Assembly: GCA_037440145.1 (NCBI GenBank)
Contig: JBBIUR010000020.1
Span: forward strand, 1-61,585
Direction of reading: 5' to 3'
DNA length: 61,585 bases
Origin: Myxococcales bacterium
GTDB taxonomy: Bacteria > Desulfobacterota > Binatia > HRBIN30 > BPIQ01
Part shown: one piece after another, positions 2,976-48,970 of the stretch
How positions within the stretch are numbered: the stretch's first letter is position 1
How the letters are laid out: every line of letters begins with the position of its first letter
Translations under genes and position numbers: made by a program
Notes under the pieces: generated by a model
Told to the model about the DNA's origin: nothing
The model's input: the letters and a program-made list of their open reading frames with translations, nothing else
Database searches by the model: none

Positions 2976-5852
2976 GTGGGGATCACGCGGCGCGACTTTC
3001 TCAGAGGCGCAGCGGCGCTGTCGCTCGCCGCGCCGGCGCTCCGCCTCCGCAACCTCGCCGCAGCACCTGCCGCAGGGGCAGCGCCGCCGGGTTCGGAGCT
3101 CCCCGCGTACCGGAGCTGGGAGGACGTGTACCGGCGCCAGTGGCAATGGGACCGCATCGTCCGCGGTACCCACTTGTGGGCCAACTGCGCTTCGGCGTGC
3201 AGCATGATGCTCTACGTGCGCGACGGCGTGGTGTGGCGCGAAGAGCAGGCTGGGGTCTATGAGCAAACCAACCCGCAGCTCCCCGACTTCAACCCGCGCG
3301 GCTGCCAGAAGGGGGCGTGTTACACCGAGCTCATGTATGGCCCGGGACGGCTTCGCTACCCGTTGCGCCGGGTGGGCCCGCGGGGCTCGGGAAGATGGCA
3401 GCGAGTCTCCTGGGACGAGGCGCTGACCGAGATCGCGGATCGCGTGATCGATGTCTTCCTCGAGGACGGGCCCCAGTGCATCACCTGGGACTTCGGCAAC
3501 ATGGATTTCGGGCCGTGCGCGGCGGCACAGATGCGGCTGTTCGGCCTCCTGGGGGTGCCCACTACCGATGCTCTGGCAGGGACGGGCGACCTCCCTCTGG
3601 GAGCGCTGCAGACGTGGGGCTTCGGGGCCGTAGATGGGTCGGCCGACGACTGGTTCCGCTCGGATTGCATCCTCGTGTGGAGCATGAACCCCGCCTACAC
3701 GCGCATCCCCGAGGCGCACTTCCTCTGGGAAGCGCGCTACCGCGGTGCCACGGTCATATCGATCGCGCCGGACTACAACGCGAGTTCGATCCACGCGGAT
3801 CTGTGGCTCAATCCCCGCGTGGGCACCGACACCGCACTCGCGCTCGGCATGGCGCGAGTGATCGTCGAGGAAAAGCTCTACCGCGAGCGGTATGTCCAGG
3901 AGCAGACCGACCTGCCGTTGCTCGTGCGCGACGACACGCGGCGGTTCCTGCGCGCGAGGGACCTGGGGGGAGCCGGAGACGGATTCTTCGTTTGGGACCG
4001 CAAAACTGGCCGGATCGCACGCGCCCCGGGCCCCAGTGGTTGGCGGGGCGGAAGCCTGGAGCTCGGGGAGCTCGATCCAGCCCTCGAAGGCGCGTACCGC
4101 GTGCGCGTGGCCGAGGGCGAAGTGACCGTGCGCCCCGTCTTCGCCCTCCTGCGCGAACAGCTCGCCCCGTACTCGCCGCAGCGGGTCGCCGCGATCACCG
4201 GCGTGGGCGCCGATATCGTGGTCGCCGTGGCGCGCAAGCTAGCGGCCGCGCGGGCCGCGTCGATCCTGGCTTCGTTCGGTTCCTGCAAGCACTATCACGC
4301 CGATCTCCTGCAGCGCAGCATGATCCTCTTGCTCGCGCTCTCGGGCCACCAGGGCAAGCCCGGAGGGGGCCTGCGCCTGAGCGCGATGTGGTCGCTCAGC
4401 GGCTTCGAGTGGCTGGCGGGTGCCTACGAGCCGCCGTTCTGGCAGCGCCTCGCCCTCTCCTGGTACCGACCGCGGCCAGCTACCGTGGAGCGGCATCTGG
4501 CCGCATACGTGCGCGAGAAACACCCGTTCCAGCCCATCCTGCTGTGGCTCTGGTACCACGGCGGCTTGCGAGAGTTACTCGGAGAACGGGATCCCGAGCT
4601 GGCAGTAGCAGTGGACAAAGCGTGCCGGCTCGGGTGGATGCCCATCTTTCCGCGCCCCGAGGCGCGGCCGCGGATTTTCTTTGCCACGGGCGCCAACGCG
4701 CTGCGCCGCTGGCCCGTACCGCAGCTCGTGCGGGAGCACCTGTGGCCCAAGCTCGACCTCGTCGTGGCCGTCGATTTCCGCATGTCGACCACGGCGCTGC
4801 ACGCCGATCTCGTGCTGCCCGCAGCCGGGTACTACGAGAAGCGCGGCATCAAGTACGCGCAGAGCTATCTGCCCTACGTCGTCTTCGGCGACCGCGCCGT
4901 GGCCCCGCCCGGGGAGGCCCGCAGCGAGTGGGAAATCTATGGCGCGCTGGCGCAGCGCATCCAAGAGCGCGCGCGGGAAAGGGGAGCGGGCCGCTATCGC
5001 GACGCGCTCGGCCACGAGCGGGACCTGACGTCGCTCTACGACCGCTGGAGCGGCGGCGGTGCCTTCCCCTGGAGCGACGACCGCCCCGCCCTGGATTTCA
5101 TCGTCGAGCGCTCCTCCCCCTTGGCAGGGGTCTCCTGGGACCAGGGAGCCGCAGCCGGAGCCGTGCGCATTCGAGACATCGGAATGTACGGGCCGGGCAA
5201 CGCGATCTGCAGCGATTTTCGCCCCGGCCAGAGCATCTACCCGTCGCAGTGGTTCGTCGAGCGGAAAATTCCGTGGCCGACAGAGACGGGCCGCCAGCAG
5301 TTCTACATCGACCATCCGTGGTTCCTGCAAGACGGCGAAGCGCTCCCCACCTACAAGGAGCCGCCGGCGGATCCGCGGTATCCGCTGCGGCTCACCGGGG
5401 GCCATACGCGATGGTCGGTCCACGCGATCTGGCGTTCCGATCCTACCATGTTGCGGTTGCAGCGGGGTGAGCCCGTGCTGTACCTCTCGGAGCGAGACGC
5501 GCGAGTGCGGGGCATCCGGGACCACGATCTCGTGCGCGTCTTCAACGCCGTTGGCTCCTTCCGCGCGCGCGCCAAGGTCGCGCCCGCGGTGCAGCCGGGC
5601 CAGGTGGCGATCTACCACGCGTGGGAGCCGTTCCAGTTTCCAGAGTGGCGGAGCAGCCAGGACGTCATCGCCTCGCCCTTCAAGCGCACCCACCTGGTTG
5701 GGAATCACGGCCACATCCGCTATCGGATGTATGCGCTGTCGCCTGGATACACGCCGCGGGGAACCCCGGTCGAAGTGGTCCTGGACACCGGGGCAGCCGA
5801 AGGCGCTGGGTGCCGCCGAATCGCGGGCATCGAAGGGCAGGCGAATCTCTGA
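2976..5852 (+). CDS. Tat-signal molybdopterin (bis-PGD) oxidoreductase catalytic subunit, type II DMSO-reductase family (NarG/EbdA-like), paralogue A1
   Basis: GTG 2976 follows GGAGGG (2963-2968); the longer ORF start at 2499 is rejected. N-terminus GITRRDFLRGAAALSLAAP is a twin-arginine motif. FS0-type motif THLWANCASAC...NPRGCQKGAC, GDLPLGALQTWG, and IPEAHFLWEARYRG...APDYNASSIHADLWL resemble NarG as I remember it. 958 aa. Confidence 0.8.
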   Translation: MGITRRDFLRGAAALSLAAPALRLRNLAAAPAAGAAPPGSELPAYRSWEDVYRRQWQWDRIVRGTHLWANCASACSMMLYVRDGVVWREEQAGVYEQTNPQLPDFNPRGCQKGACYTELMYGPGRLRYPLRRVGPRGSGRWQRVSWDEALTEIADRVIDVFLEDGPQCITWDFGNMDFGPCAAAQMRLFGLLGVPTTDALAGTGDLPLGALQTWGFGAVDGSADDWFRSDCILVWSMNPAYTRIPEAHFLWEARYRGATVISIAPDYNASSIHADLWLNPRVGTDTALALGMARVIVEEKLYRERYVQEQTDLPLLVRDDTRRFLRARDLGGAGDGFFVWDRKTGRIARAPGPSGWRGGSLELGELDPALEGAYRVRVAEGEVTVRPVFALLREQLAPYSPQRVAAITGVGADIVVAVARKLAAARAASILASFGSCKHYHADLLQRSMILLLALSGHQGKPGGGLRLSAMWSLSGFEWLAGAYEPPFWQRLALSWYRPRPATVERHLAAYVREKHPFQPILLWLWYHGGLRELLGERDPELAVAVDKACRLGWMPIFPRPEARPRIFFATGANALRRWPVPQLVREHLWPKLDLVVAVDFRMSTTALHADLVLPAAGYYEKRGIKYAQSYLPYVVFGDRAVAPPGEARSEWEIYGALAQRIQERARERGAGRYRDALGHERDLTSLYDRWSGGGAFPWSDDRPALDFIVERSSPLAGVSWDQGAAAGAVRIRDIGMYGPGNAICSDFRPGQSIYPSQWFVERKIPWPTETGRQQFYIDHPWFLQDGEALPTYKEPPADPRYPLRLTGGHTRWSVHAIWRSDPTMLRLQRGEPVLYLSERDARVRGIRDHDLVRVFNAVGSFRARAKVAPAVQPGQVAIYHAWEPFQFPEWRSSQDVIASPFKRTHLVGNHGHIRYRMYALSPGYTPRGTPVEVVLDTGAAEGAGCRRIAGIEGQANL

Positions 5853-5880
5853 ATTGCCGCGCTAGCGGCGGAGGGAAGAA

Positions 5881-7779: not shown

Positions 7780-7826
7780 GCGCGGGGGAGGGAAGGCACG
7801 AACGGGTGTGCAGAAAGGAGGTTGCC

Positions 7827-8771: not shown

Positions 8772-8778
8772 TTTCACG

Positions 8779-8796
8779 ATCCGGGGGATATTTTTT
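8779..8796 (+). terminator. weak candidate intrinsic terminator after the LLM gene
   Basis: A 4-bp stem ATCC/GGAT with a GGG loop, followed by A and a T6 run (8791-8796). A T-run is conspicuous in this GC-rich DNA, but the stem is very short. Confidence 0.25.
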
Positions 8797-8885
8797 CGCT
8801 CTTTACCGCTGGGTTGGGAGGCACCGGGGTGGTGTTTCGTCGAGTCGCCCCGGCGTCGCCCGCCGCGGGTTCTCGCGCCGCGGCT

Positions 8886-10898: not shown

Positions 10899-12059
10899 CT
10901 AGGTGCCTCGCGGCAAGCCGAGCACTTGTTCGGCGATGATGTTGCGCATGACCTCCGACGTGCCGCCGCCGATCGTGTACGCCCGCGCATCCAGGTACAG
11001 CCCCTGCCAGCGGCCGCGGTCGAGCGCCCGCGGGTTGCCCCGCCCGAGGTGGGCATAGACGCCCTCGATTTCCATGGCCACGTCCATCACGCGCTGGCGC
11101 AGCTCGGACGAGAAGAGCTTTCCGATCGCGGCGACGGGCCCCGGCGGCTCGCCGCGCAGTTGCTGCGTGAGGGTCCGGCAGCCCGTATACCGGAGGCTTT
11201 CCATTTCGATATAGACCTGCGCGAGCCGCTGGCGGGTGATCGGATCGCGGATGCGGCCGGTGGCGGCTGCGAGCCGCACGAGCCGCGCGATTTGCTGCTC
11301 CAGAGCGACCACGCCCGCGAGTCCGGAGCGCTCGAAAGAAAGCGTCGCCTTGGCGATCTTCCATCCCTGGTTCTTTTCCCCCACCAAATTCGCCTTCGGG
11401 ACGCGCACCCCGTCGAGGAACAGCTCGCAGAAGTGGCTCTTGCCCGTCATCTGGCGGATGGGCCGCACGTGCACGCCGGGCGACCGCATGTCGAGCAGCA
11501 AATAGCTGATCCCTTCGTGCTTGGGCGCGTCTGGATCACTGCGGGCGAGCAGGAAGCACCAGTCCGCAATCTGAGCGAGGCTGCTCCACACTTTTTGTCC
11601 CGTGACGACGAAGAAGTCGCCATCTTCGACCGCGCGCGTCCGCAGCGACGCCAGATCGGACCCCGCTCCCGGTTCCGAGAAGCCCTGGCACCAGATCTCC
11701 TCCGCCGTCAGGATTTTCGGCAGGAAGCGGCGTTTCTGCTCTTCGGTGCCGTAGACGATCAGGGCGGGGCCGATGATGTCGAGGCCGAGGGCGGTGATCA
11801 GCGGCGGCGCGCCCGCGCGGGCCAGCTCTTCGTTGAGGATCACCTGCCGCGTGAGCGAGGCGTCCTGCCCCCCGTAGGCGCGCGGCCACGCAATGCCCAC
11901 GAGCCCGGCTTCGTACATCTTGCGCTGCCACGCCTTCGCGTCGCTCAGTGCCTCCGCCCGATCCCTCGCCTTCCGGCGCGCCTCGGGCAAGTGCTCCCGG
12001 AGCCAGCGCCGCACATGCGCCCGGAATGCCTCGTCTTCAGGGCCGAAGGTCAGGTCCAT
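10899..12059 (-). CDS. acyl-CoA dehydrogenase
   Basis: Motifs CQGFSEPGAGSDLASLRTRAVEDGDFFVVTGQKVWSS and C-terminal GGGTSEVMRNIIAE. RBS GAGGAAAAGGGGA lies upstream of ATG 12059. Confidence 0.85.
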   Translation of the reverse strand: MDLTFGPEDEAFRAHVRRWLREHLPEARRKARDRAEALSDAKAWQRKMYEAGLVGIAWPRAYGGQDASLTRQVILNEELARAGAPPLITALGLDIIGPALIVYGTEEQKRRFLPKILTAEEIWCQGFSEPGAGSDLASLRTRAVEDGDFFVVTGQKVWSSLAQIADWCFLLARSDPDAPKHEGISYLLLDMRSPGVHVRPIRQMTGKSHFCELFLDGVRVPKANLVGEKNQGWKIAKATLSFERSGLAGVVALEQQIARLVRLAAATGRIRDPITRQRLAQVYIEMESLRYTGCRTLTQQLRGEPPGPVAAIGKLFSSELRQRVMDVAMEIEGVYAHLGRGNPRALDRGRWQGLYLDARAYTIGGGTSEVMRNIIAEQVLGLPRGT

Positions 12060-12087
12060 TGCCGCATCCCCTTTTCCTCTCTCTCGC

Positions 12088-14043
12088 TCAGAGCAGCCGG
12101 CCGACGTTGGCTCCGTGCTGCGTCGCCTCGGCCAGACCGCGCGGCGCGAAGGCCGAGCCCACTACGTAGAGTTCCGCCACCTTCCCGCGCAGGGCGCGGT
12201 AGAGGCGGTCGTCGGGCTGGCTCCCGAGCGAGAGAACGACGTGGTCGATCTCTTCCAGGCGGCGCTCCTCGCCGGTGTGGACGTCGTACACGATTACCGC
12301 GCGGCCGTCGATCGCGCGCACCCGCGTGGAGGGCCAGGTGCGAACTCCTTGCCGGTGGAGCCAGTAAAAGACGACCCCTTCTGTGTAGCGCTCGATGCGG
12401 CTGCCGAACAAGTGCCACTTGTGGGCGATCGCCACCTCTTTTCCCCGTGCCGCGAGGTAGTCCGCAATGCTGGGCGTTTCCATCCCGTCCTCTTCGGAGA
12501 CGACGAGGACGCGCGCACCGACCTCGGCGCGCCCCAGCAGCACGTCGCGCCCCTGCACCACGTTTGGCTGCTCGGCGCCGGGGACTGACAGCGGCCGCGG
12601 CTCCGATCCGGTGGCCACGACCACCGCATCCGGTGCGAGTTCCAAGACCAACTCCGGAGTGGCCTCGACTCCCATCCGCACGTCGACTCCGAGCCGCCGC
12701 ATCTGCACCTCTTGGTACCGGGGCAGATCCAGAAAGCCCTCGCGCCGCGGCGCGCGCGCCGCCGCCAGCAGTTGCCCTCCTAGCTCCGCGTTGCGCTCGA
12801 GCACGATGACCTCGTGCCCGCGCCCGGCGGCGACGCGCGCGGCCTCCAGGCCTGCGGGCCCGCCGCCGATCACGACCACCCGCTTTCGCTTTTTCGCGGG
12901 CTCGACGCGCGCCCAGGCGCGCTCGTGGCCGATGGTGGGATTGACCGCACACACGGGCGTCTTGCGCTCGCCGTGGATGACGCGGCCGATGCAGGTGTTG
13001 CAGCCGATGCACTTGCGGATCTCGTCGAGGCGCCCCTCCCGCGCCTTGCGCGGAAATTCCGGGTCCGCAATCGACGCCCGCGTCATGCCGATCAGGTCCG
13101 CTTGACCCTCGGCGAGCAAGCGCTCCGCGAGCACCGGGTCGTTGACCCTCCCGGCATAGAGCACGGGCACCGCCACCACCTGCCGGATCTCCGCTGCCGC
13201 GTAGGCGAAGGCCGCCAGGGGGTACTGCATGGGCGGCACGTAGCTCGGCATTCCCCAAGGCGCGCCGACGTCGACGCTCACGTAGTCGATCGGCACCGCG
13301 CTGCAGATCAAGCGCAGCATTTCCTTCATATCCTCGAGGGTGTACCCACCGTCCTTGTACTCGTCGGCGCACACCCGTAGCCCAACGTTGAGACTGCGCG
13401 GGACGCGGTCGCGGATGCGGCGCACCGCTTCGACGACGAAGCGGACGCGGTTTTCTGGACTTCCGCCCCAGCGGTCCGCGCGGCGGTTCGTGTAAGGGGA
13501 AAGGAACCACTGGGGCAGCGTCTCGTGCGCGCAGTGAATTTCCACGGCGTCGGCCCCGGCAGCGTGGAACTTTTCCGCCGCTTGCCAGTAGGTGTCGAGC
13601 ATGAACTCGATCTCCTCCTCGGTGAGTTCGTGGGGCACGTGGTCATAGAGCAGGCCGATCGGCACCGGAGAGGGTCCCATCAAGGACTGCAGGTGGGTGA
13701 GCTGCATCACGCAGACTGCGCCGCACCCGTGGATGGCGTCCGTGAACTCCTTCACCCGGGCGACGAAGTCCGGATGGTTGTAGATCGCGAAGCGGATGGC
13801 GGCCGCCCCAGGCGTGAATTCCTCCGGACGCCCGGGCGGCAGCGGCGTCGGCAACACCCACGTCTGGCTTCCGATCCAGCCGACGCCGCCGCGCGCTTTT
13901 TGCAGGTGGTGCTCGAGGAAGGGCTCGTCGGGCAGGCCGTCGAGACGCCCCGCGTTGATGGAATAGGTGGTCTCGGCGATGCGGTTGGGGACGGTCATCG
14001 TGCCAACCGTGATCGGGGTGAACAGGTACTGAAAGTCAGCCAC
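12088..14043 (-). CDS. 2,4-dienoyl-CoA reductase (FadH)-like protein: Old Yellow Enzyme domain, 4Fe-4S site and FAD/NAD(P) domain
   Basis: Candidate GTG 14043 preceded by GGAGG with an 8-nt spacer. Motifs HCAHETLPQWFLSPYTNRRADRWGGSPENRVRF (OYE), CIGCNTCIGRV...C (Fe-S) and VVVIGGGPAGLEAA (dinucleotide fold). No stop codon separates it from the upstream EtfB-like frame. Confidence 0.75.
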   Translation of the reverse strand: MADFQYLFTPITVGTMTVPNRIAETTYSINAGRLDGLPDEPFLEHHLQKARGGVGWIGSQTWVLPTPLPPGRPEEFTPGAAAIRFAIYNHPDFVARVKEFTDAIHGCGAVCVMQLTHLQSLMGPSPVPIGLLYDHVPHELTEEEIEFMLDTYWQAAEKFHAAGADAVEIHCAHETLPQWFLSPYTNRRADRWGGSPENRVRFVVEAVRRIRDRVPRSLNVGLRVCADEYKDGGYTLEDMKEMLRLICSAVPIDYVSVDVGAPWGMPSYVPPMQYPLAAFAYAAAEIRQVVAVPVLYAGRVNDPVLAERLLAEGQADLIGMTRASIADPEFPRKAREGRLDEIRKCIGCNTCIGRVIHGERKTPVCAVNPTIGHERAWARVEPAKKRKRVVVIGGGPAGLEAARVAAGRGHEVIVLERNAELGGQLLAAARAPRREGFLDLPRYQEVQMRRLGVDVRMGVEATPELVLELAPDAVVVATGSEPRPLSVPGAEQPNVVQGRDVLLGRAEVGARVLVVSEEDGMETPSIADYLAARGKEVAIAHKWHLFGSRIERYTEGVVFYWLHRQGVRTWPSTRVRAIDGRAVIVYDVHTGEERRLEEIDHVVLSLGSQPDDRLYRALRGKVAELYVVGSAFAPRGLAEATQHGANVGRLL

Positions 14044-14901: not shown

Positions 14902-14950
14902 CGGGCGCCCCCGCTTTCCCGTAAAGCCGCGCAGTGCGATTCGAGGCGGT

Positions 14951-22426: not shown

Positions 22427-22483
22427 GGTACCTCCTCGCAGCGGATCGAGTCCGAACCAGCTTTTCCCTTGTCTCGCAGCCCC

Positions 22484-30344: not shown

Positions 30345-30362
30345 CGGCGCCTGCACTCCTCC

Positions 30363-37681: not shown

Positions 37682-37696
37682 GCTCCTTCCGCCTGG

Positions 37697-39784
37697 CTAT
37701 TTTCCGGGCACGGAAACGACCAGGTTGCCAAGCTCGTCCACGACGACGCTGCCCCCGGGGCCGACTACGGTGGTGGACTCCCGCTCCTCGATCACCGCCG
37801 GGCCCTCGCAGCGAAACCCGGGCTGGAGGCGATAGCGGTCGTAGACCGGGCACGGCTGCGCGCGGCCGAACTCGGGGAAGTACACGTCGCGTTCGCCTTT
37901 CAAGGGGCTGCCTCCTGCGGCGCCCGCGTCGCTGCGAAATTGCAGCTCCAGGCGGGGCCGGGGCCCGGAGGCCATGACCTTCCAGTTCACGCCCATGACC
38001 TCCAGGTCCGGATGGCTCCAGTTGAACTTCTGCATGTGCACGCTGGCAAAGGCCGCTAGGATCTCCTCGCGATGCTTTGGCTGCAATTCCCCGGCGGGAA
38101 TAGGCACCTCGATCTCCCGGCCCTGCAGCGCGTAACGCATGTCGGCGGTGCGCGTGTACGCGATTTGGTCGGGCCGCACTCCCGCGCGCCCGAGCAGCCG
38201 CCGCCCTTCTTCTTCCATCTCCCGGTAGATTCGGTTGAGAACCGCGCAGTCGAGCTGGTTCATCTTCAGGATATACGTGCGGATGAAATCGAACGAGAGA
38301 GGCGCGACCAGAAAGCCCAGGGCGGAGGCCACCCCCGCCGCGTGCGGCACGACGAAGCGCCGGATGTTCAGCTTGCGGCAGAGGTTGAAAGCGTGCACCG
38401 GGCCGGCGCCGCCGAAGGCGATCATCGTGTAGGGATCGAGCTCGACGCCCTTTTCGACCGCTAGCACTCGCGCGGCGTTGGCCATGTTCTCATCGACCAC
38501 GTTGCACACGCCCCACGCAGCCTCGAGCAGCCCCAAGCGCGCCGGCCGCGCGACGTGCTTTTCGAGCGCTTCTACGGCGGCTCCGACATCGAGCGCCATC
38601 TCCCCGCCGAGAAAGTAGTTGGGGTTCAGCCACCCCAAGACGAGATCCGCGTCGGTCACGGTCGCCGCCTGGCCACCCCGCCCGTAGCATGCCGGCCCTG
38701 GATCGGCACCTGCGCTCATCGGCCCCACAGCAAGGAGGCCCATTTCATCGATGCGCGCGATCGAGCCGCCGCCGGCGCCGATCTCCAACATCTCGATCAC
38801 CGGCAGGTTGATCGGCAGGCCGCTTCCCTTCTTGAAGCGCGCCATCCGCGCGATCTCGAACTCCTTGGTGACCGATGGCTTCGCATTGTCGATCAGGCAG
38901 CTCTTGGCCGTCGTGCCGCCCATGTCGAACGAGAGTACGCGGGGGCACTGCAGGCGCTCGCTCAGGGAGGCAGCCAGCACGGCGCCCGCGGCGGGGCCCG
39001 ATTCGAGGATCCGAATCGGAAAGTCGCGCGCTACCTCTGGCGTCGTGATGCCGCCGTGGGAGAGCATCATGAAGAACTCGCCGCCGAAGCGGAGGTCCTG
39101 CAGGCGCTGGACGAAGCTGGACAGGTAGCGGCGCGTCTCGGGTAGGGCAAACGCGTTCGCCACCGTCGTCGAGGCTCGCTCGTATTCGCGGATCTCGGGA
39201 ATCAACTCCGAGGAGAGCGTCACGCTCGTGCCCGGCGCGATTTTGTGGATGATCTCCCGCATCCGCCGCTCGTGCACGGGGTTGCGGAACGAGTGGAGAA
39301 AGCAAACCGCAAAGGCCTCCACCCCGTCGGCGAGGAGCTCGCGCACCACGCGCGCCGCCTGGCGCTCGTCGAGCTTGGTGTGCACTGCGCCCTGCGCGTC
39401 GATGCGCTCCCGGATGCCCCTGCGCCAGCGCCGGGGCACCAGCGGCTTCGGCATCTCGATGTTGATGTCGTAGTTGTCGTAGCGGCTGCCCCGGCCGACC
39501 TCGAGGAAGTCCCGAAACCCTTCGGTTACCAGCAGCGCTGTCTTCGCGCCCGTGCGCTGGATCAGGGTGTTGATCACCAGCGTGGTGCCGTGGATCAACT
39601 GCTGCACATCGCGCTCGAGCGATACCCCCCGGGCCTTGCACAAGCCCCGCAGCCCCTCGACGGCCGCCCGCGCCGGGTCCACCGGATCGGTCAAAACCTT
39701 CGCGGTGTGCACCTCCTGCCGGGCGGCGTCCACCATCGCCAAATCCGTAAACGTCCCCCCGATGTCGCAACCAATTCGATACAC
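37697..39784 (-). CDS. hydantoinase A / oxoprolinase family protein (ATP-binding subunit)
   Basis: GTG 39784 lies 7 nt after AGGAG; the 751-aa extended ORF is rejected. Motifs YRIGCDIGGTFTD, SFDMGGTTAK and FGGAGPVHA. Confidence 0.8.
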   Translation of the reverse strand: MYRIGCDIGGTFTDLAMVDAARQEVHTAKVLTDPVDPARAAVEGLRGLCKARGVSLERDVQQLIHGTTLVINTLIQRTGAKTALLVTEGFRDFLEVGRGSRYDNYDINIEMPKPLVPRRWRRGIRERIDAQGAVHTKLDERQAARVVRELLADGVEAFAVCFLHSFRNPVHERRMREIIHKIAPGTSVTLSSELIPEIREYERASTTVANAFALPETRRYLSSFVQRLQDLRFGGEFFMMLSHGGITTPEVARDFPIRILESGPAAGAVLAASLSERLQCPRVLSFDMGGTTAKSCLIDNAKPSVTKEFEIARMARFKKGSGLPINLPVIEMLEIGAGGGSIARIDEMGLLAVGPMSAGADPGPACYGRGGQAATVTDADLVLGWLNPNYFLGGEMALDVGAAVEALEKHVARPARLGLLEAAWGVCNVVDENMANAARVLAVEKGVELDPYTMIAFGGAGPVHAFNLCRKLNIRRFVVPHAAGVASALGFLVAPLSFDFIRTYILKMNQLDCAVLNRIYREMEEEGRRLLGRAGVRPDQIAYTRTADMRYALQGREIEVPIPAGELQPKHREEILAAFASVHMQKFNWSHPDLEVMGVNWKVMASGPRPRLELQFRSDAGAAGGSPLKGERDVYFPEFGRAQPCPVYDRYRLQPGFRCEGPAVIEERESTTVVGPGGSVVVDELGNLVVSVPGK

Positions 39785-40775: not shown

Positions 40776-41078
40776 ATGCCCCCGCGCCAGGTTCGGGTTA
40801 CGGTCGAACTCATGGGCCCGTTCGAGTTCGACTTCGGTGCCACCGGCGCCGAGATCGACGTGCCCGAGCCCGCTACCGTAGGCGCCCTCGTCGAGGCGCT
40901 CGCTGCAAAGTGGCCCGCCGCAGTGCGGCTGCGCGAACTGCTCTGCGATCCCTCGCCGCGCGGCCGCTATTGCTGCGTCTCGCTCGACCACGAAGTGCTG
41001 CCCCCCGAGGACGTGCTGGCCACACCGCTGCGCGATGGCGCCCACGTCTGCTTCGCGCTCCCCATGGCCGGGGGCTGA
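40776..41078 (+). CDS. MoaD/ThiS-family ubiquitin-like (beta-grasp) protein with a C-terminal Gly-Gly
   Basis: ATG 40776, 5 nt after the SDR stop; 100 aa. It ends LRDGAHVCFALPMAGG-stop, compared with the MoaD ending L.DGDEVAFFPPVTGG (from memory). Confidence 0.6.
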   Translation: MPPRQVRVTVELMGPFEFDFGATGAEIDVPEPATVGALVEALAAKWPAAVRLRELLCDPSPRGRYCCVSLDHEVLPPEDVLATPLRDGAHVCFALPMAGG

Positions 41079-41174
41079 CAGGTGCGGCACCCGCGCCGCG
41101 AGTTGGCCAAAATCAGCGCTTGCCTAAAAGGCCCGTCATCTGTTAACAAACGTTCGTTTGCTGCTGAGGGGCCA

Positions 41175-43173
41175 ATGGGGAGCCGAGTCGTCCCGGGGGA
41201 CGGAGCCGCGGTTCGGTTTGCGGCGGGCAGTGGGCGGGTGCCGGAGGGCATCAGCCGGCGCGGGTTTCTCTGCAGTGCGGGAGCGGCTGCGGTAGCGCTC
41301 TGTCTGGGCCGCCTGGTGCCTCGGGCGACTGCAAGTGGTGCCGGGGCGGTGGCGGTGAGCCCCGCAGTGCCTGACTACCGGAGCTGGGAGGACGTGTACC
41401 TGAGGCGGTGGACTTGGGATCGCGTGGTCAAAGGCGCCCACCACGTGATCAACTGCGTCTCATCGTGCCCGTTCCTCGTCTTCGTCAAGGACGGCATCGC
41501 TTGGCGCGAGGAACAGAACGCGGTGATGGAGGCGAACGGCCCAGCGCTGCCCGACTTCAATCCCCGCGGCTGCCAGAAGGGCATCTGCACGAGCCAACTC
41601 ATGTACGGCCCGCAGCGCCTGAAGTATCCGCTCGAGCGGGTGGGGCCGCGCGGTTCGGGGAAATGGAGGCGGATTTCGTGGGACGAAGCCCTCACGCCGA
41701 TCGCCGACGCGATCCTCGATGTGGCCGCGCAGGACGGGACGGAGTGCGTGGTGTACGACAGCGGCACGGCGAACGCCGATTACAGCGCTTCGACTGCGGG
41801 CGAGGTGCACTTTTTCGATCTGCTGGGTGCCACCCAGCTCGACGGCTGGGCCGCGGCGGGTGACATGCCGCTCGGCGTCCTCATGACGTGGGGGATCTTC
41901 AATGTCGACGGAACCTCCGACGACTATTTCCACGCCGACCTGATCTACTTGTGGCTCGGCAACCCGACGTACACGCGCATTCCCGATGCGCACTTCATCT
42001 GGGAGGCGCGCTACCGCGGCAGCAAGGTGGTCAGCGTCGCCCCCGACTACAACGCCTCGAGCGTGCACGCGGACCTGTGGGTCCATCCCCGCGTGGGCAC
42101 CGATGCGGCGCTCGCCCTCGGCATGGCGCAGGTGATCGTCGCGGAGCGGCTCTACCGCGCCGACTTCGTAAAGGAGCAGACCGATCTCCCGCTGCTGGTC
42201 CGGGAAGACACGCGGCGCTTTCTGCGCCAGTCAGACCTGCGACAGGGCGGAGCGGAGAACATCTTCTACTTGTGGGATACCCGCAGGGGATCTGCCGTCC
42301 AGGCGCCGGGGTCCGAGGGATTGGATCGCGGCACGACGCTAGAGCTGGGCGCGCTGGATCCAGCCCTGGAGGGGCGCTTCGAAGTGCGCCTGGCCGACGG
42401 GCGGAGTGTCGGCGTGCGCCCGCGAGTTTGCTGCAGCCCGGGCCGTCACGGTCTTCGGATCGTGGGGCATGATGAAGCACCACCACAGCGATCTCGTCCA
42501 GCGCTCGCTCCTCCTGTTGCTGGCGCTCACCGGCAACGTGGGCCGCCGCGGCGCCGGGGTGCGCATCGGCGCCTGGTACATGATGAGCAGCCTCGAGCCC
42601 TTGCTGGCGAAGGTGAAGCCAGCCTGGTGGCAGAAGCTGCTCTTGCGAGTGTACCGCCCCACGGTGCGAGAGCTGATCAGCTACTTCCGCGATTACGAGC
42701 GCGAGCACATGTACATGAACATCCCCGCGCTCCTGTTCCTCTACTACCATGGGGGCCTGAAGGAGCTCGTCGACCGGCCGACCGGCGGCCACACGCGCTG
42801 GTCGATCCACTCGACCTTCCGCGACGAAGTGCACATGCTGCGGTTGCAGCGCGGCGCTCCCGTTGCCTACCTCAACCCGGAGGACGCAGCGGCGCGCGGC
42901 ATCCGCGACCACGACCGAATCCGCGTGTTCAACGACGTCGGATCGTGCGAGCTCGCGGCCAAGATTTCCCCTTCGGTCCAACCCGGCCAGGTGATCGTCT
43001 ACCACGCCTGGGAGCCGTTCCAGTTTCCCGAGTGGCGCAGCCCGCAAGACCCGGTCCCTTCGCCATGGAAGTCGCTCCACTTGGCGAGCTACGGGCAGCT
43101 CCACTACCGCTTCCTGTACGCGGGGCCGCACCACGCGCCGCGGGCGACGGCGGTGGAGGTGGCGAGGGCGTGA
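41175..43173 (+). pseudogene. decayed NarG/EbdA-like molybdoenzyme gene, paralogue A3 (frameshifting deletion plus a large in-frame deletion)
   Basis: The first ~415 codons (frame of ORF 41082-43226) match A4 closely up to ...GVRP (about nt 42420). Homology then resumes in another frame (ORF 42406-43173: REFAAARAVTVFGSWGMMKH...). A second gap joins LKELVDRP directly to TGGHTRWSIHS at nt 42780/42781. The twin-arginine motif SRRGFL is retained. Confidence 0.8.
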
Positions 43174-43207
43174 GGGGTGGCTCCGAGCGAAAGGGGGTTT
43201 CCGAGCC

Positions 43208-46066
43208 ATGCACGAGATGGGAATGACGCGCAGGCAGTTCCTGTGGGGGATCGGCGCGACGGGGTTGAGCTTGTCGCTCGCCCGCCTCGCGTGGCTGCCC
43301 GGGCGGGCACTCGCCCAAGGGGTCCCCGCTCCCCTGCCGCCCTACCGGGAGTGGGAGGACCTCTACCGGCAAAAGTGGCAGTGGGACAAGGTGGTCAAAG
43401 CCGCCCACCATGTCGTCAACTGCGCTTCCTCGTGCCCGTTCGACGTCTTCGTGAAGGACGGGATCGTGTGGCGCGAGGAGCAGAACGCGGTCATGGAGGC
43501 GAATAAGCCCTCGCTGCCCGACTTCAATCCCCGCGGCTGCCAGAAGGGCGTCTGCACGAGCCAGTTGATGTACAGCCCGCAGCGGCTGAAGTATCCCCTC
43601 AAGCGCGTCGGCCCGCGCGGCTCGGGAAAGTGGAAGCGCATCTCTTGGGACGAGGCGCTCACGGAGATCGCCGACAAGATCCTCGACGTCGCGCTCCGGG
43701 ACGGCATCGAGTGCGTCGTCTACGATAGCGGCACCGCGAACGCCGGTTACGACGCGCCGACCGCAGGGGAAACCCATTTCTTTAACCTGCTCGGCTGCAC
43801 GCAGCTCGATGGCTGGGCGGCTGTGGGCGACATGCCGCTCGGTATGATCCTCACGTGGGGCCTGTTCAACGTCGACAGCACGTCCGACGATTACATGAAC
43901 GCAGACTTGATCCTGCTGTGGCTGGGCAACCCGACGTACACGCGCATCCCCGACGCGCACTTCATCTGGGAGGCGCGCTACCACGGCAGCAAGGTGGTCA
44001 GCATTGCCCCGGACTACAATGCGTCGAGCATCCACGCCGACCTATGGTTGAACCCCCGCATCGGCACCGATGCTGCCCTCGCCCTCGGGATGGCCCACGT
44101 GCTGGTCGAGGAACAGCTCTACAACGCCGCCTTCGCGAAAGAGCAAACCGACCTGCCGTTGCTCGTCCGGGAGGATACGGGGCGCTTTCTGCGCGAGTCG
44201 GACCTCCGCCAGGGCGGGGCGGAGAACATCTTCTACCTCTGGGATACCCGCAGCGGCTCCGCCGTGCAGGCCCCGGGCAGCGAGGGGCTCGGGCGCAGCA
44301 CCACGCTCGCACTGGGCGGACTGGACCCCGCGCTGGAGGGACAGTTCGAAGTGCAGCTCGCAAGCGGGCAGAAGGTGCGCGTGCGGCCCGTTTTCGAACG
44401 GCTGCGGAAGCGACTGGCGGATTACCCGCCAGAGAAGGTGGCGCAGATCACCGGCGTGAACGCCAAGCTCGTCGCCGACCTGGCGCGAGAGATGGCCCGC
44501 GCCAAGGCCGTCACGATGTTCGGCTCCTGGGGCATGATGAAGCACTATCACAGCGACCTCTTCCAGAGATCGATCCTGTTGCTGCTGGCGCTTACGGGCA
44601 ACGTGGGCCGCCGCGGCGCGGGGATCCGGGTGGGCGCTTGGTATATGCTCAGCAGCCTCGAGTACATCCTGAGCGCCGTCAAGCCGACCTGGTACCAGAA
44701 GGCCCTGATGGCAGTCTTCAAGCCCACGGTGCGGGAGCTGATCGGGTATTTCCGCGCCTACGAGCGAGAGCACATGTACATGAACGTGCCTGCGCTGATG
44801 TTTCTGTACGAGCACGGCGGACTGAAGGAGGTGGTGGATCGGCCCGAGTACCATGATGCGAACCCCGGCAAGGTGCTGCCCGAAGCGATGAAGGAGTCGA
44901 TCGAGCACGAGTGGGTGCCGCTCTACCCGAAGCCCGGAAAACCGCCGCGCGTCTACATTCACACACGCGTCAACCCCCTGCGGCGCTGGCCGGCCCCGCA
45001 GGTGGTCGAGAAACACCTGTGGCCCAAGCTCGAGCTGATCGTGGCCGTGAACCTCAAGATGTCCACGACGGCGGCGAAGTCGGATATCGTGCTCCCCGCA
45101 TGCGGCCCGTACGAGCGGCGCGGAATCAAGTACGCCCAGAGCTACGTGCCCTATTACGCCGTGGGCGAGAAGGCCGTGGAGCCGCTGGGCGAGTCGAAGA
45201 GCGAGTGGGAAATCGCCGGCCTGCTGGCGCGCAAGATCCAGGAACGGGCGCGCGCCCGAGGCATGCAGCCCATTCGCGATGCCAAGGGCAAGCCCCGCGA
45301 CTTCACCACGCTCTATGACCAGTGGAGTCACCAGGGGCGGTTCCAGCCCGAGGACGATCTGCCTTTTTACGAAGCGGTGACGCGAGAGTCGCCCGAGATC
45401 GGCAAGATCCCGTGGGCGGAGGCCGCGCGGCAGGGGGCGGTGCGCATTCAGGATGTGGGTCCGTTCCGCACGCACACCAACCTCTGCAGCGACTACGAGC
45501 CCGGAGATACGATCTACCCCTGCCAGTGGTTCGTGCAGCACAAGCAGCCGTGGCCGACGCTGACGGGCCGGCAGCAGTTCTACATCGACCACGAGTGGTT
45601 CTTGCGCGCCGGAGAGGAGCTGCCGGTGCACAAGGAGCCCCCCAAGGCCGGGGGGGACTATCCGTTGCGCCTGACCGGCGGCCACACGCGCTGGTCGATC
45701 CACTCCATCTGGCGCGAGGAAAGGCACATGCTGCGGTTGCAACGGGGCGAGCCCGTGATGTACATCTCGCCTGCCGATGCGGCCGCGCGCGGCATCGGCG
45801 ACAACGATCGCGTGCGGATGTTCAACGACGTGGGCGCTTGCGTGCTGCGGGCAAAAATCGCCCCGGCGGTGCAGCCGGGAACGGTGATCGTGTACCACGC
45901 TTGGGAGCCGTTCCAGTTTCCCGGCTGGCGCGGGAGCCAGGAGCCCGTGGCCTCGCCGTGGAAGTCGCTGCACGTCGCGGAATACGGCCAGCTCCACTAC
46001 CGGTTCCTGTTCGCCGGCCCGCACCACGCACCGCGTGCGACCAGCGTGGAGGTCCAGCGTGCCTGA
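43208..46066 (+). CDS. Tat-signal molybdopterin oxidoreductase catalytic subunit (NarG/EbdA-like), paralogue A4
   Basis: Motifs MHEMGMTRRQFLWGIGATGLSLSLARL...ALA-QG, AAHHVVNCASSC...NPRGCQKGVC, GDMPLGMILTWG, IPDAHFIWEARYHG and APDYNASSIHADLWL; 952 aa. The exact start (ATG 43208, or the 2nd or 3rd ATG) is uncertain. Confidence 0.8.
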   Translation: MHEMGMTRRQFLWGIGATGLSLSLARLAWLPGRALAQGVPAPLPPYREWEDLYRQKWQWDKVVKAAHHVVNCASSCPFDVFVKDGIVWREEQNAVMEANKPSLPDFNPRGCQKGVCTSQLMYSPQRLKYPLKRVGPRGSGKWKRISWDEALTEIADKILDVALRDGIECVVYDSGTANAGYDAPTAGETHFFNLLGCTQLDGWAAVGDMPLGMILTWGLFNVDSTSDDYMNADLILLWLGNPTYTRIPDAHFIWEARYHGSKVVSIAPDYNASSIHADLWLNPRIGTDAALALGMAHVLVEEQLYNAAFAKEQTDLPLLVREDTGRFLRESDLRQGGAENIFYLWDTRSGSAVQAPGSEGLGRSTTLALGGLDPALEGQFEVQLASGQKVRVRPVFERLRKRLADYPPEKVAQITGVNAKLVADLAREMARAKAVTMFGSWGMMKHYHSDLFQRSILLLLALTGNVGRRGAGIRVGAWYMLSSLEYILSAVKPTWYQKALMAVFKPTVRELIGYFRAYEREHMYMNVPALMFLYEHGGLKEVVDRPEYHDANPGKVLPEAMKESIEHEWVPLYPKPGKPPRVYIHTRVNPLRRWPAPQVVEKHLWPKLELIVAVNLKMSTTAAKSDIVLPACGPYERRGIKYAQSYVPYYAVGEKAVEPLGESKSEWEIAGLLARKIQERARARGMQPIRDAKGKPRDFTTLYDQWSHQGRFQPEDDLPFYEAVTRESPEIGKIPWAEAARQGAVRIQDVGPFRTHTNLCSDYEPGDTIYPCQWFVQHKQPWPTLTGRQQFYIDHEWFLRAGEELPVHKEPPKAGGDYPLRLTGGHTRWSIHSIWREERHMLRLQRGEPVMYISPADAAARGIGDNDRVRMFNDVGACVLRAKIAPAVQPGTVIVYHAWEPFQFPGWRGSQEPVASPWKSLHVAEYGQLHYRFLFAGPHHAPRATSVEVQRA

Positions 46067-46072
46067 CGGGCG

Positions 46073-48970
46073 GTGGGAAGCCAGAGCGCGCGCGGGGGCG
46101 GGCGATCCGTGACGATCACGCGCCGCGAGTTTCTCCAGGGGACCGGGGCGGCGGTCCTGAGCTTATCGCTCGGGCGGCTCGCGTTCCTCGGCGAAGCGCA
46201 GGCCGCTCGCGCTGTCCCCGGCTCGGGCGTGCCCGACTACCGCAGTTGGGAGGACGTGTACCGGCGCAAGTGGACTTGGGACCGGATCGCAAAAGGCACC
46301 CATTACGTCAATTGCTGGTACCAGCGCGGGTGCAATTGGGATGTCTACGTCAAGGACGGCGTCGTTTTCCGCGAGGAGCAAGCGGCGACCTATCCGCAGA
46401 CGAACCCCGAGGTCCCCGATTTCAACCCCCGCGGCTGCCAAAAAGGGGCCTGCTACAGCTTGCGGATGTACGACCCGGATCGCATCCGCTACCCGCTCAA
46501 GCGAATCGGGCAGCGCGGCGAGGGCAAGTGGAAGCGCGTGAGCTGGGAAGAAGCGCTGCGCGAAATCGCATCGGCGCTGCTCGAGGTCCTCCGCGAGGAA
46601 GGGCCCGGAGCCATTTACTGGGACATGGGCACTGCTGCAACCAACGGCTGCCACGGGCTCGGCCTCTTCCGCACCTCGCAGGTGCTCGACACGCCCTTCC
46701 TCGACATGAACGCGGAGATCGGCGACCACCACCCGGGCGCAGCCGTCTCTTGCGGCAAGATCGTCTTCGCCAGCTCGGGCGACGATCTCTTTTACTCCGA
46801 CCTGATTCTCATCTGGGGCGGAAACCCGCTCTACACCCAAATTCCCAACGCCCATTTTTTCACCGAGGCGCGCTACCGCGGCGCGCGGGTAGTCACCATC
46901 GCGCCCGACTACAGCCCGTCGGCAATCCACGCGGATCTGTGGGTGCCCCTCCAGGTGGGTACGGACGCCGCGCTGGGCCTGGCACTCGCTCACGTGATCG
47001 TCGCCGAAGGGCTCTGCGACCGCAGCTTTGTGGCCGAGCAAACCGACCTGCCCTTGCTCGTGCGCAGGGACAACCGTCGCTTCCTGCGCGCGCGCGATCT
47101 GCAAAAAGGAGGCAGCGAGGAGACGTTCTATCTCTACGACCGCCGCACCGGTCGGGTCCGGGAGGCTCCATCGGCCCGCCTCGACCTGCAAGGGATCGAG
47201 CCTGCGCTCGAAGGGGAGTTCGAGGTCTCGACGCCTTCGGGACCCGTGACCGTCGTTCCGGTCTTCCAGTTGCTGCGTGAGCACCTGGCGGCCTATTCGC
47301 CCGAGGCGGCGGCGAAGATTACGGGTACGCCCCCCGAGGTAATCCGTCGCCTCGCGCGCGACATCGCCCGGGCAAAGGCCGCCACGGTGCTGACGCAGTC
47401 GAATTTCTCGAAGTTCTACCACGGCCTGGAAATGGAGCGCGCGCAGATCCTGGTGCTCGCACTCTGCGGCCACTTCGGGAAAAAGGGCAGCGGCCTGAAC
47501 GCCTTCCCTTGGTTGACGATCGACTCTTCCGAGGCGCTCGGAACCGCTCCGGCCCTGCCGATGCAGTTGGCCCTGATCGCGCTGGGAGCGCAGAACGCGC
47601 CGAAGTGGGCGGCGGCGAAGTGGAAGGGCTGGACTGACGAGATGTTCCTCTACAACGAGGCGCGCGAGATGTACCGCAAAGGGGGGTTCGTCTCCTCGGT
47701 CCTCTTCTATTACCTTCACGGGGGCTTCAAGGAGCAGATGCGCCGTGCCGGCAAGGTGGATCCGAGCTTGCGGCGGGAACTGGACGCGTACGTGGAGGAG
47801 GCCTTGGCCAGGGGCTGGCAGATCGCGCCGACCACGCCCCCGAAAATTCTCTTCGCGGAGGGCGGCAACATCTTCCGTCGGGTGCGCGGCTACCCGGTGC
47901 TGCTGGAGAACCTGCTCCCCAAGCTGCGGCTGCTCGTGACGGTCGACTGGCGCATGAGCACGACAGGTCTGTACAGCGATTACGTGTTGCCCGCGGCCGG
48001 GTATTACGAAAAGGATGACATAACCTGGGCGACGCCGATCGCGCCGTTCGCCCACGTGACCACCAAGGCAGTCGAGCCCCTCGGCGAGGCGAAGCACGAG
48101 TGGCAGTTCCATTGCCTGCTGCTGAAGGAGCTGCAGGCCCAGGCGGTCGCCGCCGGGCAGACCACGTACCGCGATCGCGCCGGCAACGAGCGGCGCCTCG
48201 ATCGCGTGTACGACGAGTTCACGTTCGGCCAGCGCTACACCGAGCGCGATGCGGAGCCGTTCTTGCGCGACATGGTCGCAATGGCGACAAACCTGAAGGG
48301 CACGACCTGGGACGAGCTGAAGGAGAAGGGATTTGCCCGCTACACGGGGCTCGGCATGGGCCTGATCAACATCGGGAACGCGACCGATATCGAACCCGGC
48401 CAGACGGTCACGGCAAACCGCTGGCACGTCGAGAAGAAAATGCCGTGGCCGACTCTTACCCGCCGCATCCAGTTTTACATCGACCACGACCTCTACCTCG
48501 AGCTGGGCGAGGAGCTGCCGGTGCACAAAGACAATCCGCCAATCGGCGGCAACTACCCGCTGCAGATGACCGGCGGGCACGCGCGCTGGTCCATCCATAC
48601 GATGTGGCGGCCCGATCCGCGGCTGCTGCGGTTGCAGCGGGGCGAGCCGGTCTTGTTTCTCAGCACAGCCGACGCGCGCGCTCGCGGCATTGGCGACAAC
48701 GACCGCGTGCGGGTCTACAACGATTTCGGTTCCTTCGAGGTCCGGGCCCGCATCGCCCCCTCGGTGCGCCCCGGCCAGGTGATCATCTACCACGCCTGGG
48801 AGCCGTTCCAGTTTCGGGGGCGGCGGTCCCACCAAGTCGTCACTCCCAGCCCGATCAACCCGATCCAACTGGCGGGCGGGTATTTTCACTTGCAGCCGAT
48901 GCCCATTGCGTGCGAGCCGGGGCAGAACGACCGCGGCACGCGCGTGGAGGTGGAAAAGATCGCGACCTGA
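46073..48970 (+). CDS. Tat-signal molybdopterin oxidoreductase catalytic subunit (NarG/EbdA-like), divergent paralogue A5
   Basis: Motifs ITRREFLQGTGAAVLSLSLGRL...AQA-A, GTHYVNCWYQRGC...NPRGCQKGAC, IGDHHPG, IPNAHFFTEARYRG and APDYSPSAIHADLWV. The start is GTG 46073 or GTG 46109 (giving VTITRREFL). Confidence 0.8.
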   Translation: MGSQSARGGGRSVTITRREFLQGTGAAVLSLSLGRLAFLGEAQAARAVPGSGVPDYRSWEDVYRRKWTWDRIAKGTHYVNCWYQRGCNWDVYVKDGVVFREEQAATYPQTNPEVPDFNPRGCQKGACYSLRMYDPDRIRYPLKRIGQRGEGKWKRVSWEEALREIASALLEVLREEGPGAIYWDMGTAATNGCHGLGLFRTSQVLDTPFLDMNAEIGDHHPGAAVSCGKIVFASSGDDLFYSDLILIWGGNPLYTQIPNAHFFTEARYRGARVVTIAPDYSPSAIHADLWVPLQVGTDAALGLALAHVIVAEGLCDRSFVAEQTDLPLLVRRDNRRFLRARDLQKGGSEETFYLYDRRTGRVREAPSARLDLQGIEPALEGEFEVSTPSGPVTVVPVFQLLREHLAAYSPEAAAKITGTPPEVIRRLARDIARAKAATVLTQSNFSKFYHGLEMERAQILVLALCGHFGKKGSGLNAFPWLTIDSSEALGTAPALPMQLALIALGAQNAPKWAAAKWKGWTDEMFLYNEAREMYRKGGFVSSVLFYYLHGGFKEQMRRAGKVDPSLRRELDAYVEEALARGWQIAPTTPPKILFAEGGNIFRRVRGYPVLLENLLPKLRLLVTVDWRMSTTGLYSDYVLPAAGYYEKDDITWATPIAPFAHVTTKAVEPLGEAKHEWQFHCLLLKELQAQAVAAGQTTYRDRAGNERRLDRVYDEFTFGQRYTERDAEPFLRDMVAMATNLKGTTWDELKEKGFARYTGLGMGLINIGNATDIEPGQTVTANRWHVEKKMPWPTLTRRIQFYIDHDLYLELGEELPVHKDNPPIGGNYPLQMTGGHARWSIHTMWRPDPRLLRLQRGEPVLFLSTADARARGIGDNDRVRVYNDFGSFEVRARIAPSVRPGQVIIYHAWEPFQFRGRRSHQVVTPSPINPIQLAGGYFHLQPMPIACEPGQNDRGTRVEVEKIAT

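Follow-up and report, generated by a model that had tools for sequence, protein, structure and literature searches.

Ethylbenzene dehydrogenase-like alpha subunits encoded without partner genes on a contig of a probable Binatia genome: subunit sharing as the most likely explanation

Introduction

To our knowledge, water-dependent molybdenum (Mo) hydroxylases are the sole known oxygen-independent means of attacking unactivated C-H bonds, be it in sterol side chains, in alkylbenzenes or in some terpenes. These enzymes have been studied almost exclusively in a few denitrifying Proteobacteria. Here, we describe a contig of 61,585 nucleotides (JBBIUR010000020.1 of assembly GCA_037440145.1; hereafter, the window) from a metagenome-assembled genome (MAG) that is named Myxococcales bacterium and has a GTDB lineage in the Binatia. 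The window carries five genes resembling the alpha subunits of such hydroxylases (A1 to A5) and none for the beta, gamma or chaperone (delta) subunits. An earlier inspection of the DNA (the sequence-only reading) had offered two explanations, namely that the alphas share beta and gamma subunits encoded elsewhere, or that they stand alone with a new electron partner. We consider it probable (roughly 0.78) that they are periplasmic, oxygen-independent C-H hydroxylase alphas of the branch that holds ethylbenzene dehydrogenase (EBDH; alpha subunit EbdA) and steroid C25 dehydrogenase (S25DH), and that their beta, gamma and delta subunits are encoded elsewhere in the genome and shared.

Sterolibacterium denitrificans carries more alpha genes (eight) than beta-gamma genes, and the authors infer that the beta-gamma subunits are shared (PMC6016249; PMC6153880). 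S25DH1 is composed of alpha1, beta3 and gamma3, which illustrates that beta-gamma can be encoded away from the alpha, and its chaperone is essential (PMC6016249; PMC6153880). Production of an alpha alone reportedly did not work in preliminary experiments (PMC6016249). A Mo-dependent C26 hydroxylase (S26DH) acts after a flavin-dependent delta24-desaturase (PMC11061730), and the 25-hydroxysteroid kinase (25-HSK) of S. denitrificans is a phosphotransferase-family protein (PMC8449060). The window resembles this S25DH1-4/S26DH1-3 system in its many type II alphas exported by the twin-arginine translocation (Tat) pathway, of which there are eight in S. denitrificans and four intact and one decayed here. 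Its relatives resemble it in having fewer beta-gamma sets than alphas, a gene order with gamma before beta, and two deep alpha clades. A further likeness is the association with side-chain beta-oxidation, a phosphotransferase-type kinase and a flavin desaturase. The hosts differ, as S. denitrificans belongs to the Betaproteobacteria and the window probably to the Binatia, another phylum. So do the steps that follow, with an AMP-forming ligase and an aldehyde dehydrogenase in S. denitrificans and probably family-III coenzyme A (CoA)-transferases and a tungsten-type aldehyde:ferredoxin oxidoreductase (AOR) here. The oxygen-independent sterol side-chain route goes on from the hydroxylase, and the kinase or desaturase, to oxidation to the acid, CoA activation and beta-oxidation, and the ingredients found in the window parallel it. 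We take this analogy as a lead, not as proof of membership, because the published flavin-attachment motif is missing from the flavoproteins next to the alphas.

Among solved structures, the best relative is EbdABC(D) of Aromatoleum aromaticum (2IVF), with which A5 aligns over residues 17-962. EbdA and A5 share Asp223, Lys450 and an unusual spacing (H-x3-C-x5-C) of the ligands of FS0, the [4Fe-4S] cluster of the alpha subunit. The ethylbenzene route continues with a short-chain dehydrogenase/reductase (SDR) and then an acetophenone-carboxylase-type enzyme, and the window also contains SDR and acetophenone-carboxylase-like (hydantoinase) genes. The EBDH operon is ordered alpha-beta-gamma-delta, whereas relatives of the window have gamma-beta-alpha-alpha and the window itself has no partner genes. 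PcrA (4YDD) and NarG are alike in overall fold and in belonging to the Asp-coordinated Mo family. Their FS0 motif is of the H-x3-C-x3-C type, to which A1, A2 and A4 are similar with one extra residue after the His, but their context is respiratory whereas that of the window is catabolic. A literature search for Binatia together with EBDH or dimethyl sulfoxide (DMSO) reductase found no papers.

Materials and Methods

The window spans one complete contig, 61,585 bp being the longest contig recorded in the protein database for A1, A2, A4 and A5, and the MAG is fragmented. The window has a G+C content of 68% and 44 genes by codon-usage gene calling. Hidden Markov models (HMMs) of the beta and gamma (EB_dh, PF09459) subunits were built from genes upstream of A4 orthologues in relatives, the beta genes being of the Fer4_11 type and 340-356 amino acids long. 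The sources of the delta HMM (NarJ-like, PF02613) were confirmed by Pfam in five related loci. All partner searches covered six frames. Subunits were counted in a set of 80 related loci, labelled L001 to L080. The tree, which is approximate, was made by neighbour-joining on a MAFFT alignment, with 100 bootstraps on 41 taxa. Cutoffs were 984.75 bits (curated) for TIGR03479 (DMSO_red_II_alp), 2000 bits for the EbdA equivalog NF042978 and 1084 bits for the NarG model TIGR01580.

Results and Discussion

Four intact alphas of the EbdA/S25DH kind

The five alpha genes were found where the sequence-only reading had placed them, with four intact copies of 952-977 amino acids and strong coding statistics, and a decayed A3. 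A1 (2976..5852, plus strand) encodes 958 amino acids, and A2 (24868..27801, minus strand), which lies inside a long minus-strand array, encodes 977 and is identical to database protein P0116. A3 (41172..43173), A4 (43208..46066, 952 amino acids) and A5 (46073..48970, 965 amino acids, or 953 from the database start) are all on the plus strand. A4 has a best match of 72% identity in GTDB representative genomes. A1, A2, A4 and A5 each contain PF00384 (E ~1e-38) and PF01568, so that the molybdopterin-domain check proposed for them turned out positive. They match TIGR03479 over its full length, covering model positions 1-912 or 1-913 with 941-1010 bits, A4 exceeding the cutoff at 1010.1 bits. The alphas are 36-39% identical to EbdA (2IVF_A) and 37-41% identical to PcrA, and they score 608-722 bits with the EbdA equivalog, under its cutoff. 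The best PDB match of A5 is 2IVF_A, with 709 bits and 509 for PcrA, whereas A4 scores 612 bits with 2IVF_A, tied with PcrA. NarG is about 1240 amino acids long, and its model is matched only in fragmented stretches, with 311-343 bits, far under the cutoff. No narH/J/I-type genes occur in the window either. A1, A2, A4 and A5 are type II DMSO-reductase alphas of the EbdA/S25DH kind and not NarG, and the family assignment of the sequence-only reading is right.

The cofactor ligands agree with this assignment. The segment GD(L/M)PLG in A1-A4, or GDHHPG in A5, had been taken for the Asp Mo-ligand region, and its Asp indeed aligns on Asp223 of EbdA. The equivalent of EbdA Lys450 is kept in A1, A2, A4 and A5. 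The predicted His...Cys...Cys...RGCQKG.C motif is present, and alignment to EbdA reveals that the His and three Cys of FS0 are conserved in the same four proteins. Their spacing is H-x3-C-x5-C in A5, as in EbdA (HYVNCWYQRGC aligns with HLNICWPQGSC), and H-x4-C-x3-C in A1, A2 and A4. The latter is not a sign of a lost cluster, because clade members that adjoin beta-gamma in other genomes have the same ligand set and the same spacing. A further motif, YR(S/A/E)WED(V/L)Y..W.WD, is present; the earlier pattern, which began with YR(S/E), misses YRA in A2.

All five copies carry the (S/T)RRxFL twin-arginine motif that had been noted in them, which falls within the first 21 residues of the four intact ones (ITRRDFL in A1). 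A5 also reaches the TIGR01409 cutoff. No other Tat-motif protein is encoded on the contig, and the CxxCH (haem-c) motif is found in no protein encoded there.

The phylogeny separates the alphas into two deep clades. A1 and A2, which are 64-65% identical, pair as sister paralogues in 100/100 bootstraps and group with A4 in superclade I, without A5 and EbdA (100/100 bootstraps). A5 belongs to superclade II, the EbdA-side clade, where it stands with EbdA apart from A4 (99/100 bootstraps with PcrA as outgroup). Alphas from Steroidobacteraceae MAGs (L020, L022) are placed at the base of superclade I, and a homologue in the range of this superclade, P0052 (54% identical to A4), bears the IMG name steroid C-25 hydroxylase alpha subunit. 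A homologue search with A5 gave generic names only, none of which tells EbdA-like from S25dA-like proteins. Members of the A1/A2 clade are found inside beta-gamma clusters (L007, L031) or at most 10 kb from a beta (L005, L030). By analogy, the two deep clades seem to recall the split between S25dA1-4 and S25dA5-7 in S. denitrificans (PMC6208644).

A3 is a pseudogene, a decayed tandem copy of A4 with 76-77% protein identity. In tblastn, it covers A4 residues 5-394 in one frame and residues 422-546 and 821-952 in another, with a frameshift near 42422 and an internal loss of 274 codons at ~42780 (A4 residues 547-820). Only the N-terminal part of the Pfam molybdopterin domains is left. The dS between A3 and A4 is 0.81-0.87, and a counterpart is missing in the closest relative, L080. 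On a 3-Mb contig of a related MAG (L005), the alphas flanking a gamma-beta-A4-A5 core (4270-8166 and 21453-22850) look fragmented as well, and such decay of alpha genes may be common in the family.

Partner genes are missing from the window and adjoin orthologous alphas in relatives

The claim that the 61 kb contain no beta, gamma or chaperone gene withstood our searches with HMMs made from relatives. The beta HMM gives 520-619 bits in relatives, and its sole match in the window is a 154-amino-acid ferredoxin (33469-33933) with 77 bits. Neither the gamma nor the delta HMM has a match in any of the six frames of the window, even at E<=10. Since the window is the complete contig of a fragmented MAG, this absence says little about the whole genome.

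Candidates for a disguised partner were considered and rejected. The Fer4_11 ferredoxin is not a miniature beta, as it overlaps the start of the AOR gene and, with 16 Cys, fits the usual partner of AOR; true betas exceed 520 bits, compared with its 77. The NarI-like domain (PF02665) encoded at 14951-16906 is not an EbdC-type gamma, as it shares one protein with HdrD-type CCG domains and has genes for electron-transfer flavoprotein (ETF) subunits on either side. Two genes upstream of A1 on the plus strand (147-2019) encode a 169-amino-acid protein (g1, 147-656) and a 14-Cys protein of 428-461 amino acids (g2, 634-2019), neither of clear family. As they lack similarity to NarJ and EB_dh, they were rejected as chaperone or gamma; g2 has a weak radical-SAM match (E=4e-4).

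In seven relatives (L001, L002, L004, L005, L006, L010 and L045), whose A4 orthologues are 67-73% identical, a beta gene lies directly upstream of the A4-A5 pair. A gamma was also detected upstream in four of these (L001, L002, L005, L006); in L045, gamma and beta matches fall on the stop-to-stop frame that also contains the alpha. L001 and L002 both have the order gamma-beta-A4-A5-CrtI followed by an acyl-CoA dehydrogenase (ACAD). CrtI-family and beta-oxidation genes follow A4-A5 in L001, L002 and L006, and the ACAD pair is kept in L001. The closest relative, L080 (JGI sample 3300010938), has an A4 that is 92% identical and the same layout as the window: SDR, ThiS-like gene, A4, A5, two CrtI-family genes and two ACADs. 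Like the window, it has no gamma-beta at the A4-A5 locus, and none lies upstream of the A4-A5 locus of L003 (72%). This means that the lineage has been without gamma-beta at this locus for some time. Purifying selection on A4 and A5 is nevertheless strong, with dN/dS of 0.06 and 0.125, respectively, against the L080 orthologues at dS ~0.7-0.9.

An excess of alphas is general in the related loci. The 80 loci contain 139 full-length alphas, ~62 betas, ~44 gammas and 33 deltas, an alpha:beta ratio of about 2:1. Clusters of the form alpha-gamma-beta-alpha-alpha-alpha-delta (L007, L031) combine several alphas with one partner set, and orphan alphas with full 10-kb flanks and no partner occur in L012, L014, L016, L051 and L071. 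A conserved cluster of four alphas, one beta, two gammas and a delta was observed in seven Chloroflexota/Dehalococcoidia MAGs (L039-L043, L046, L049), in the order alpha-beta-gamma-alpha, alpha, delta-gamma, alpha. Large alpha repertoires are therefore also found in Dehalococcoidia-type genomes.

The absence of partner genes is thus much less anomalous than it first appeared, because the MAG is fragmented and the window one complete contig of it, partners lie beside orthologues, alphas are in excess in the 80 loci, and the same pattern has been published for Sterolibacterium. Of the two explanations offered earlier, the first is favoured: partners beside A4-A5 orthologues, multi-alpha clusters, the ~2:1 ratio and the published precedent (PMC6016249) all argue for subunit sharing. 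Sharing together with contig fragmentation most likely explains the partnerless alphas, and the partner genes are most likely on another contig. The orphan-alpha arrangement is already known from the cholesterol-degrading S. denitrificans, so that this is a new example of it and not a new enzyme architecture.

A proposed mechanism and points against it

In the mechanism that we propose, each alpha would hold a Mo-bis(pyranopterin guanine dinucleotide) cofactor and one [4Fe-4S] cluster (FS0) and be exported by the Tat pathway. Acting on a hydrophobic substrate, it would remove a hydride at an activated C-H bond and add a water-derived hydroxyl, the two electrons passing from FS0 through a four-cluster beta to a haem-b gamma. 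Beta, gamma and the NarJ-like chaperone would be encoded at another locus and be common to alpha paralogues of differing substrate specificity. The hydroxylated product may then be oxidised by SDRs, or by the Mo enzyme itself and then the tungsten-type AOR. The APH-type kinase and the CrtI-family flavoproteins might contribute phosphorylation and elimination, or desaturation, and the hydantoinase-type enzyme carboxylation. Activation by family-III CoA-transferases would lead into beta-oxidation, carried out by ACADs together with MaoC/ChsH-like hydratases, Ltp2/DUF35 proteins and thiolases. Its electrons would pass by way of ETF to a membrane Fe-S/haem protein. The order of these downstream steps is one that we infer.

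Several observations weigh against this account. Three of the alphas fall 2-4% under the TIGR03479 cutoff (A1 963.7, A5 966.5 and A2 941.0 bits), with A4 alone over it. The window, L080 and also L003 are without gamma-beta at the A4-A5 locus, which makes a lineage-wide loss possible. We infer that beta, gamma and delta lie elsewhere in the genome, the profile searches having covered this contig only. A beta-centred scan of JGI metagenomes returned no contig from the sample of L080 (3300010938), and the best alpha identity to the window in it was 59%. The candidate substrates are isoprenoid or sterol side chains, or other hydrocarbons. The characterised alphas in the sequence comparison were EbdA, PcrA and NarG (as a model). 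The CrtI-family pair also departs from its suggested counterparts. The delta24-desaturase and CtmAB enzymes that bind flavin mononucleotide (FMN) covalently have the N-terminal consensus G-F-[LR]-x-[NS]-[TL]-H-A (PMC11061730), and neither window protein matches it (48993-50474, GFTYDLWPHG; 50493-52022, GFTYELWPVIHA). The His of this region is displaced by two or four residues relative to the consensus. The tandem pair is thus reminiscent of the heteromeric CtmAB and delta24-desaturase enzymes without having the published FMN motif.

Alternative explanations

The missing gamma-beta at the A4-A5 loci of the window, L080 and perhaps L003 could mean that beta-gamma was lost from this operon, perhaps from the genome, and that the alphas now function through a non-canonical outlet, which we regard as unlikely. 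A related proposal is that the alphas stand alone or use a non-canonical partner, passing FS0 electrons directly to another periplasmic or membrane acceptor. It would account for 61 kb with four intact alphas and no beta, gamma or delta, for the purifying selection on A4 and A5 where L080 and L003 have no gamma-beta at the locus, and for the orphan alphas with full 10-kb flanks in other genomes. However, the window encodes neither a c-type cytochrome nor any further exported redox protein that could act as an alternative partner, and its sole ferredoxin is of the cytoplasmic, AOR-linked type. The FS0 region is fully conserved and matches that of clade members beside beta-gamma. Shared beta-gamma encoded in trans is experimentally documented, whereas production of an alpha alone reportedly failed in preliminary work (PMC6016249). 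This second explanation of the sequence-only reading is therefore unsupported, and we think it improbable.

We give similarly little credence to the alphas being oxyanion or other respiratory reductases of the PcrA/SerA/ClrA/DdhA kind, in incidental beta-oxidation surroundings. The identity of A1, A2 and A4 to PcrA (40-41%) is slightly higher than that to EbdA (37%), and A4 scores equally with both. However, in several genomes the alpha pair is syntenic with genes of the CrtI-family, ACAD, ChsH/Ltp2-like and thiolase types, which argues for a catabolic role. A2 also overlaps a CoA-transferase gene by 4 bp, and P0052 bears the name steroid C-25 hydroxylase. The gamma-beta order is that of S25DH constructs (PMC6016249) and not that of pcrABCD, and there is no chlorite dismutase or similar gene nearby. 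Least credible is that the alphas are remnants on their way to loss after a beta-gamma deletion, A3 being merely the first to decay: the A3 pseudogene, an ACAD with an in-frame stop in the same island and the missing gamma-beta of relatives would fit, but the four full-length reading frames with intact cofactor ligands, and the low dN/dS at dS ~0.7-0.9, indicate genes long kept without local beta-gamma.

The window extends the known multi-alpha Mo-hydroxylase repertoires to what are probably the Binatia. The contig and the 80 loci reveal large and diversified alpha repertoires within beta-oxidation islands of MAGs labelled Binatia, Deltaproteobacteria, Chloroflexota and Dehalococcoidia. These repertoires point to a wider role in the anoxic turnover of sterols, isoprenoids or hydrocarbons, and they form a pool of new substrate specificities of biocatalytic interest, as exemplified by 25-hydroxyvitamin D3 synthesis (PMC6016249). 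By analogy with the succession of S25DH, kinase or desaturase, and S26DH, the Binatia operon gamma-beta-alpha(I)-alpha(II)-CrtI(-APH) could be a two-hydroxylase cascade in one unit. If true, this would extend oxygen-independent oxidation of sterol or isoprenoid side chains to a phylum without prior description of it.

Catabolic genes around the alphas

A2 lies in an array of ~31 kb on the minus strand, with overlaps of 1 or 4 bp between several neighbouring genes. The array begins with a hydantoinase A/B pair, a LUD/CCG protein, a 16-Cys ferredoxin, AOR and an NMO-family gene. A double CoA-transferase, A2 and a second double CoA-transferase follow, and then MaoC, SDR, two luciferase-like genes and a PNPOx-family gene. 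It ends with ETF-alpha, a NarI/HdrD-like membrane protein, an ETF-beta/FadH-BaiCD fusion and an ACAD.

The hydantoinase B/A pair at the head of the array (35927..39784, minus strand; PF02538, and PF01968 with PF05378) is of the caprolactamase/acetophenone-carboxylase type, with NCBIfam matches to CapA (531 bits) and ApcC (300 bits) that are all under their cutoffs. A similar pair adjoins the orphan alpha of L012. Next, at 31490..35927 (minus strand), come a 665-amino-acid LUD/Fer4/CCG protein (LUD and CCG domains), the 154-amino-acid 16-Cys ferredoxin (Fer4_11) and the tungsten-type AOR (PF02730 and PF01314). These genes overlap each other by 4 bp and may form an aldehyde-oxidising module with its own electron outlet. 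The two fused double family-III CoA-transferases of 777 and 852 amino acids (22484..30356, minus strand; two PF02515 stretches each) flank A2 on either side. The upstream one (27798-30356), which overlaps the A2 gene by 4 bp, has CaiB/Frc-type matches in NCBIfam.

The final part of the array (10899..17895, minus strand) holds ETF-alpha (16903-17895), the NarI-like and HdrD-like Fe-S membrane protein, the ETF-beta/FadH-BaiCD fusion and the ACAD. The membrane protein (14951-16906, minus strand) has 651 amino acids, with a NarI-like haem-b domain (PF02665), two [4Fe-4S] motifs and two CCG domains. The fusion protein (12088-14901, minus strand) has 937 amino acids and unites ETF-beta, an old-yellow-enzyme Fe-S flavoprotein of the FadH/BaiCD type and an NAD/FAD domain. 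In the stretch 12088-17895, an enoyl/dienoyl-CoA reductase is hard-wired, unusually, to ETF and to a quinone-side module of the membrane. The whole of 10899..17895 is a cytoplasmic-side electron outlet of beta-oxidation (ACAD) and no partner for the alphas, which are periplasmic.

Directly upstream of the A4-A5 region, a small ThiS/MoaD-like protein of 100 amino acids is encoded (40776..41078, plus strand; PF02597, E=1.6e-6). L080 has an 88-amino-acid ThiS-family gene in the same position (860-1126), followed by the A4 orthologue, and in both this reading frame sits where other relatives have gamma-beta. The protein may have a role in molybdopterin synthesis or maturation.

Directly downstream of A4-A5 are the two tandem CrtI/phytoene-desaturase-family flavoproteins of 493 and 509 amino acids (48993..52022, plus strand; PF01593), which reach 82-94 bits with TIGR02734, under its cutoff of 238. 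CrtI orthologues follow the alpha pair in L001 (15830-17392) and L002 (15797-17326), with one gene each, in L080 (7522-10235), with two in tandem, and in L006; a homologue lies beside alphas in L066. The tandem genes of the window and L080 are 45-47% identical to each other's orthologues. The beta-oxidation set that follows (52034..60079, plus strand) is syntenic in order with L001, L002 and L080. It comprises two ACADs, an SCPx/Ltp2-type thiolase with a DUF35/ChsH2-type OB protein, a thiolase, a stop-bearing ACAD and two SDRs. A luciferase-like gene is also found downstream of A4-A5. The stop-bearing ACAD (57263-58429, plus strand) has an in-frame TAA at 57446-57448 (PER*GGLG, where Tyr is expected) and is either a nonsense pseudogene or the product of a sequencing error.

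At the other end of the window, a full-length transketolase gene (5881-7779, plus strand; NF004559, 904 bits, over the cutoff) begins 29 bp downstream of A1, an unexpected neighbour for the gene of a periplasmic hydroxylase. The last gene, truncated at the contig end, encodes an APH-family phosphotransferase (61055..61585, plus strand; PF01636), homologues of which (34-52% identity) lie beside alphas in L004, L005, L006, L031 and L066.

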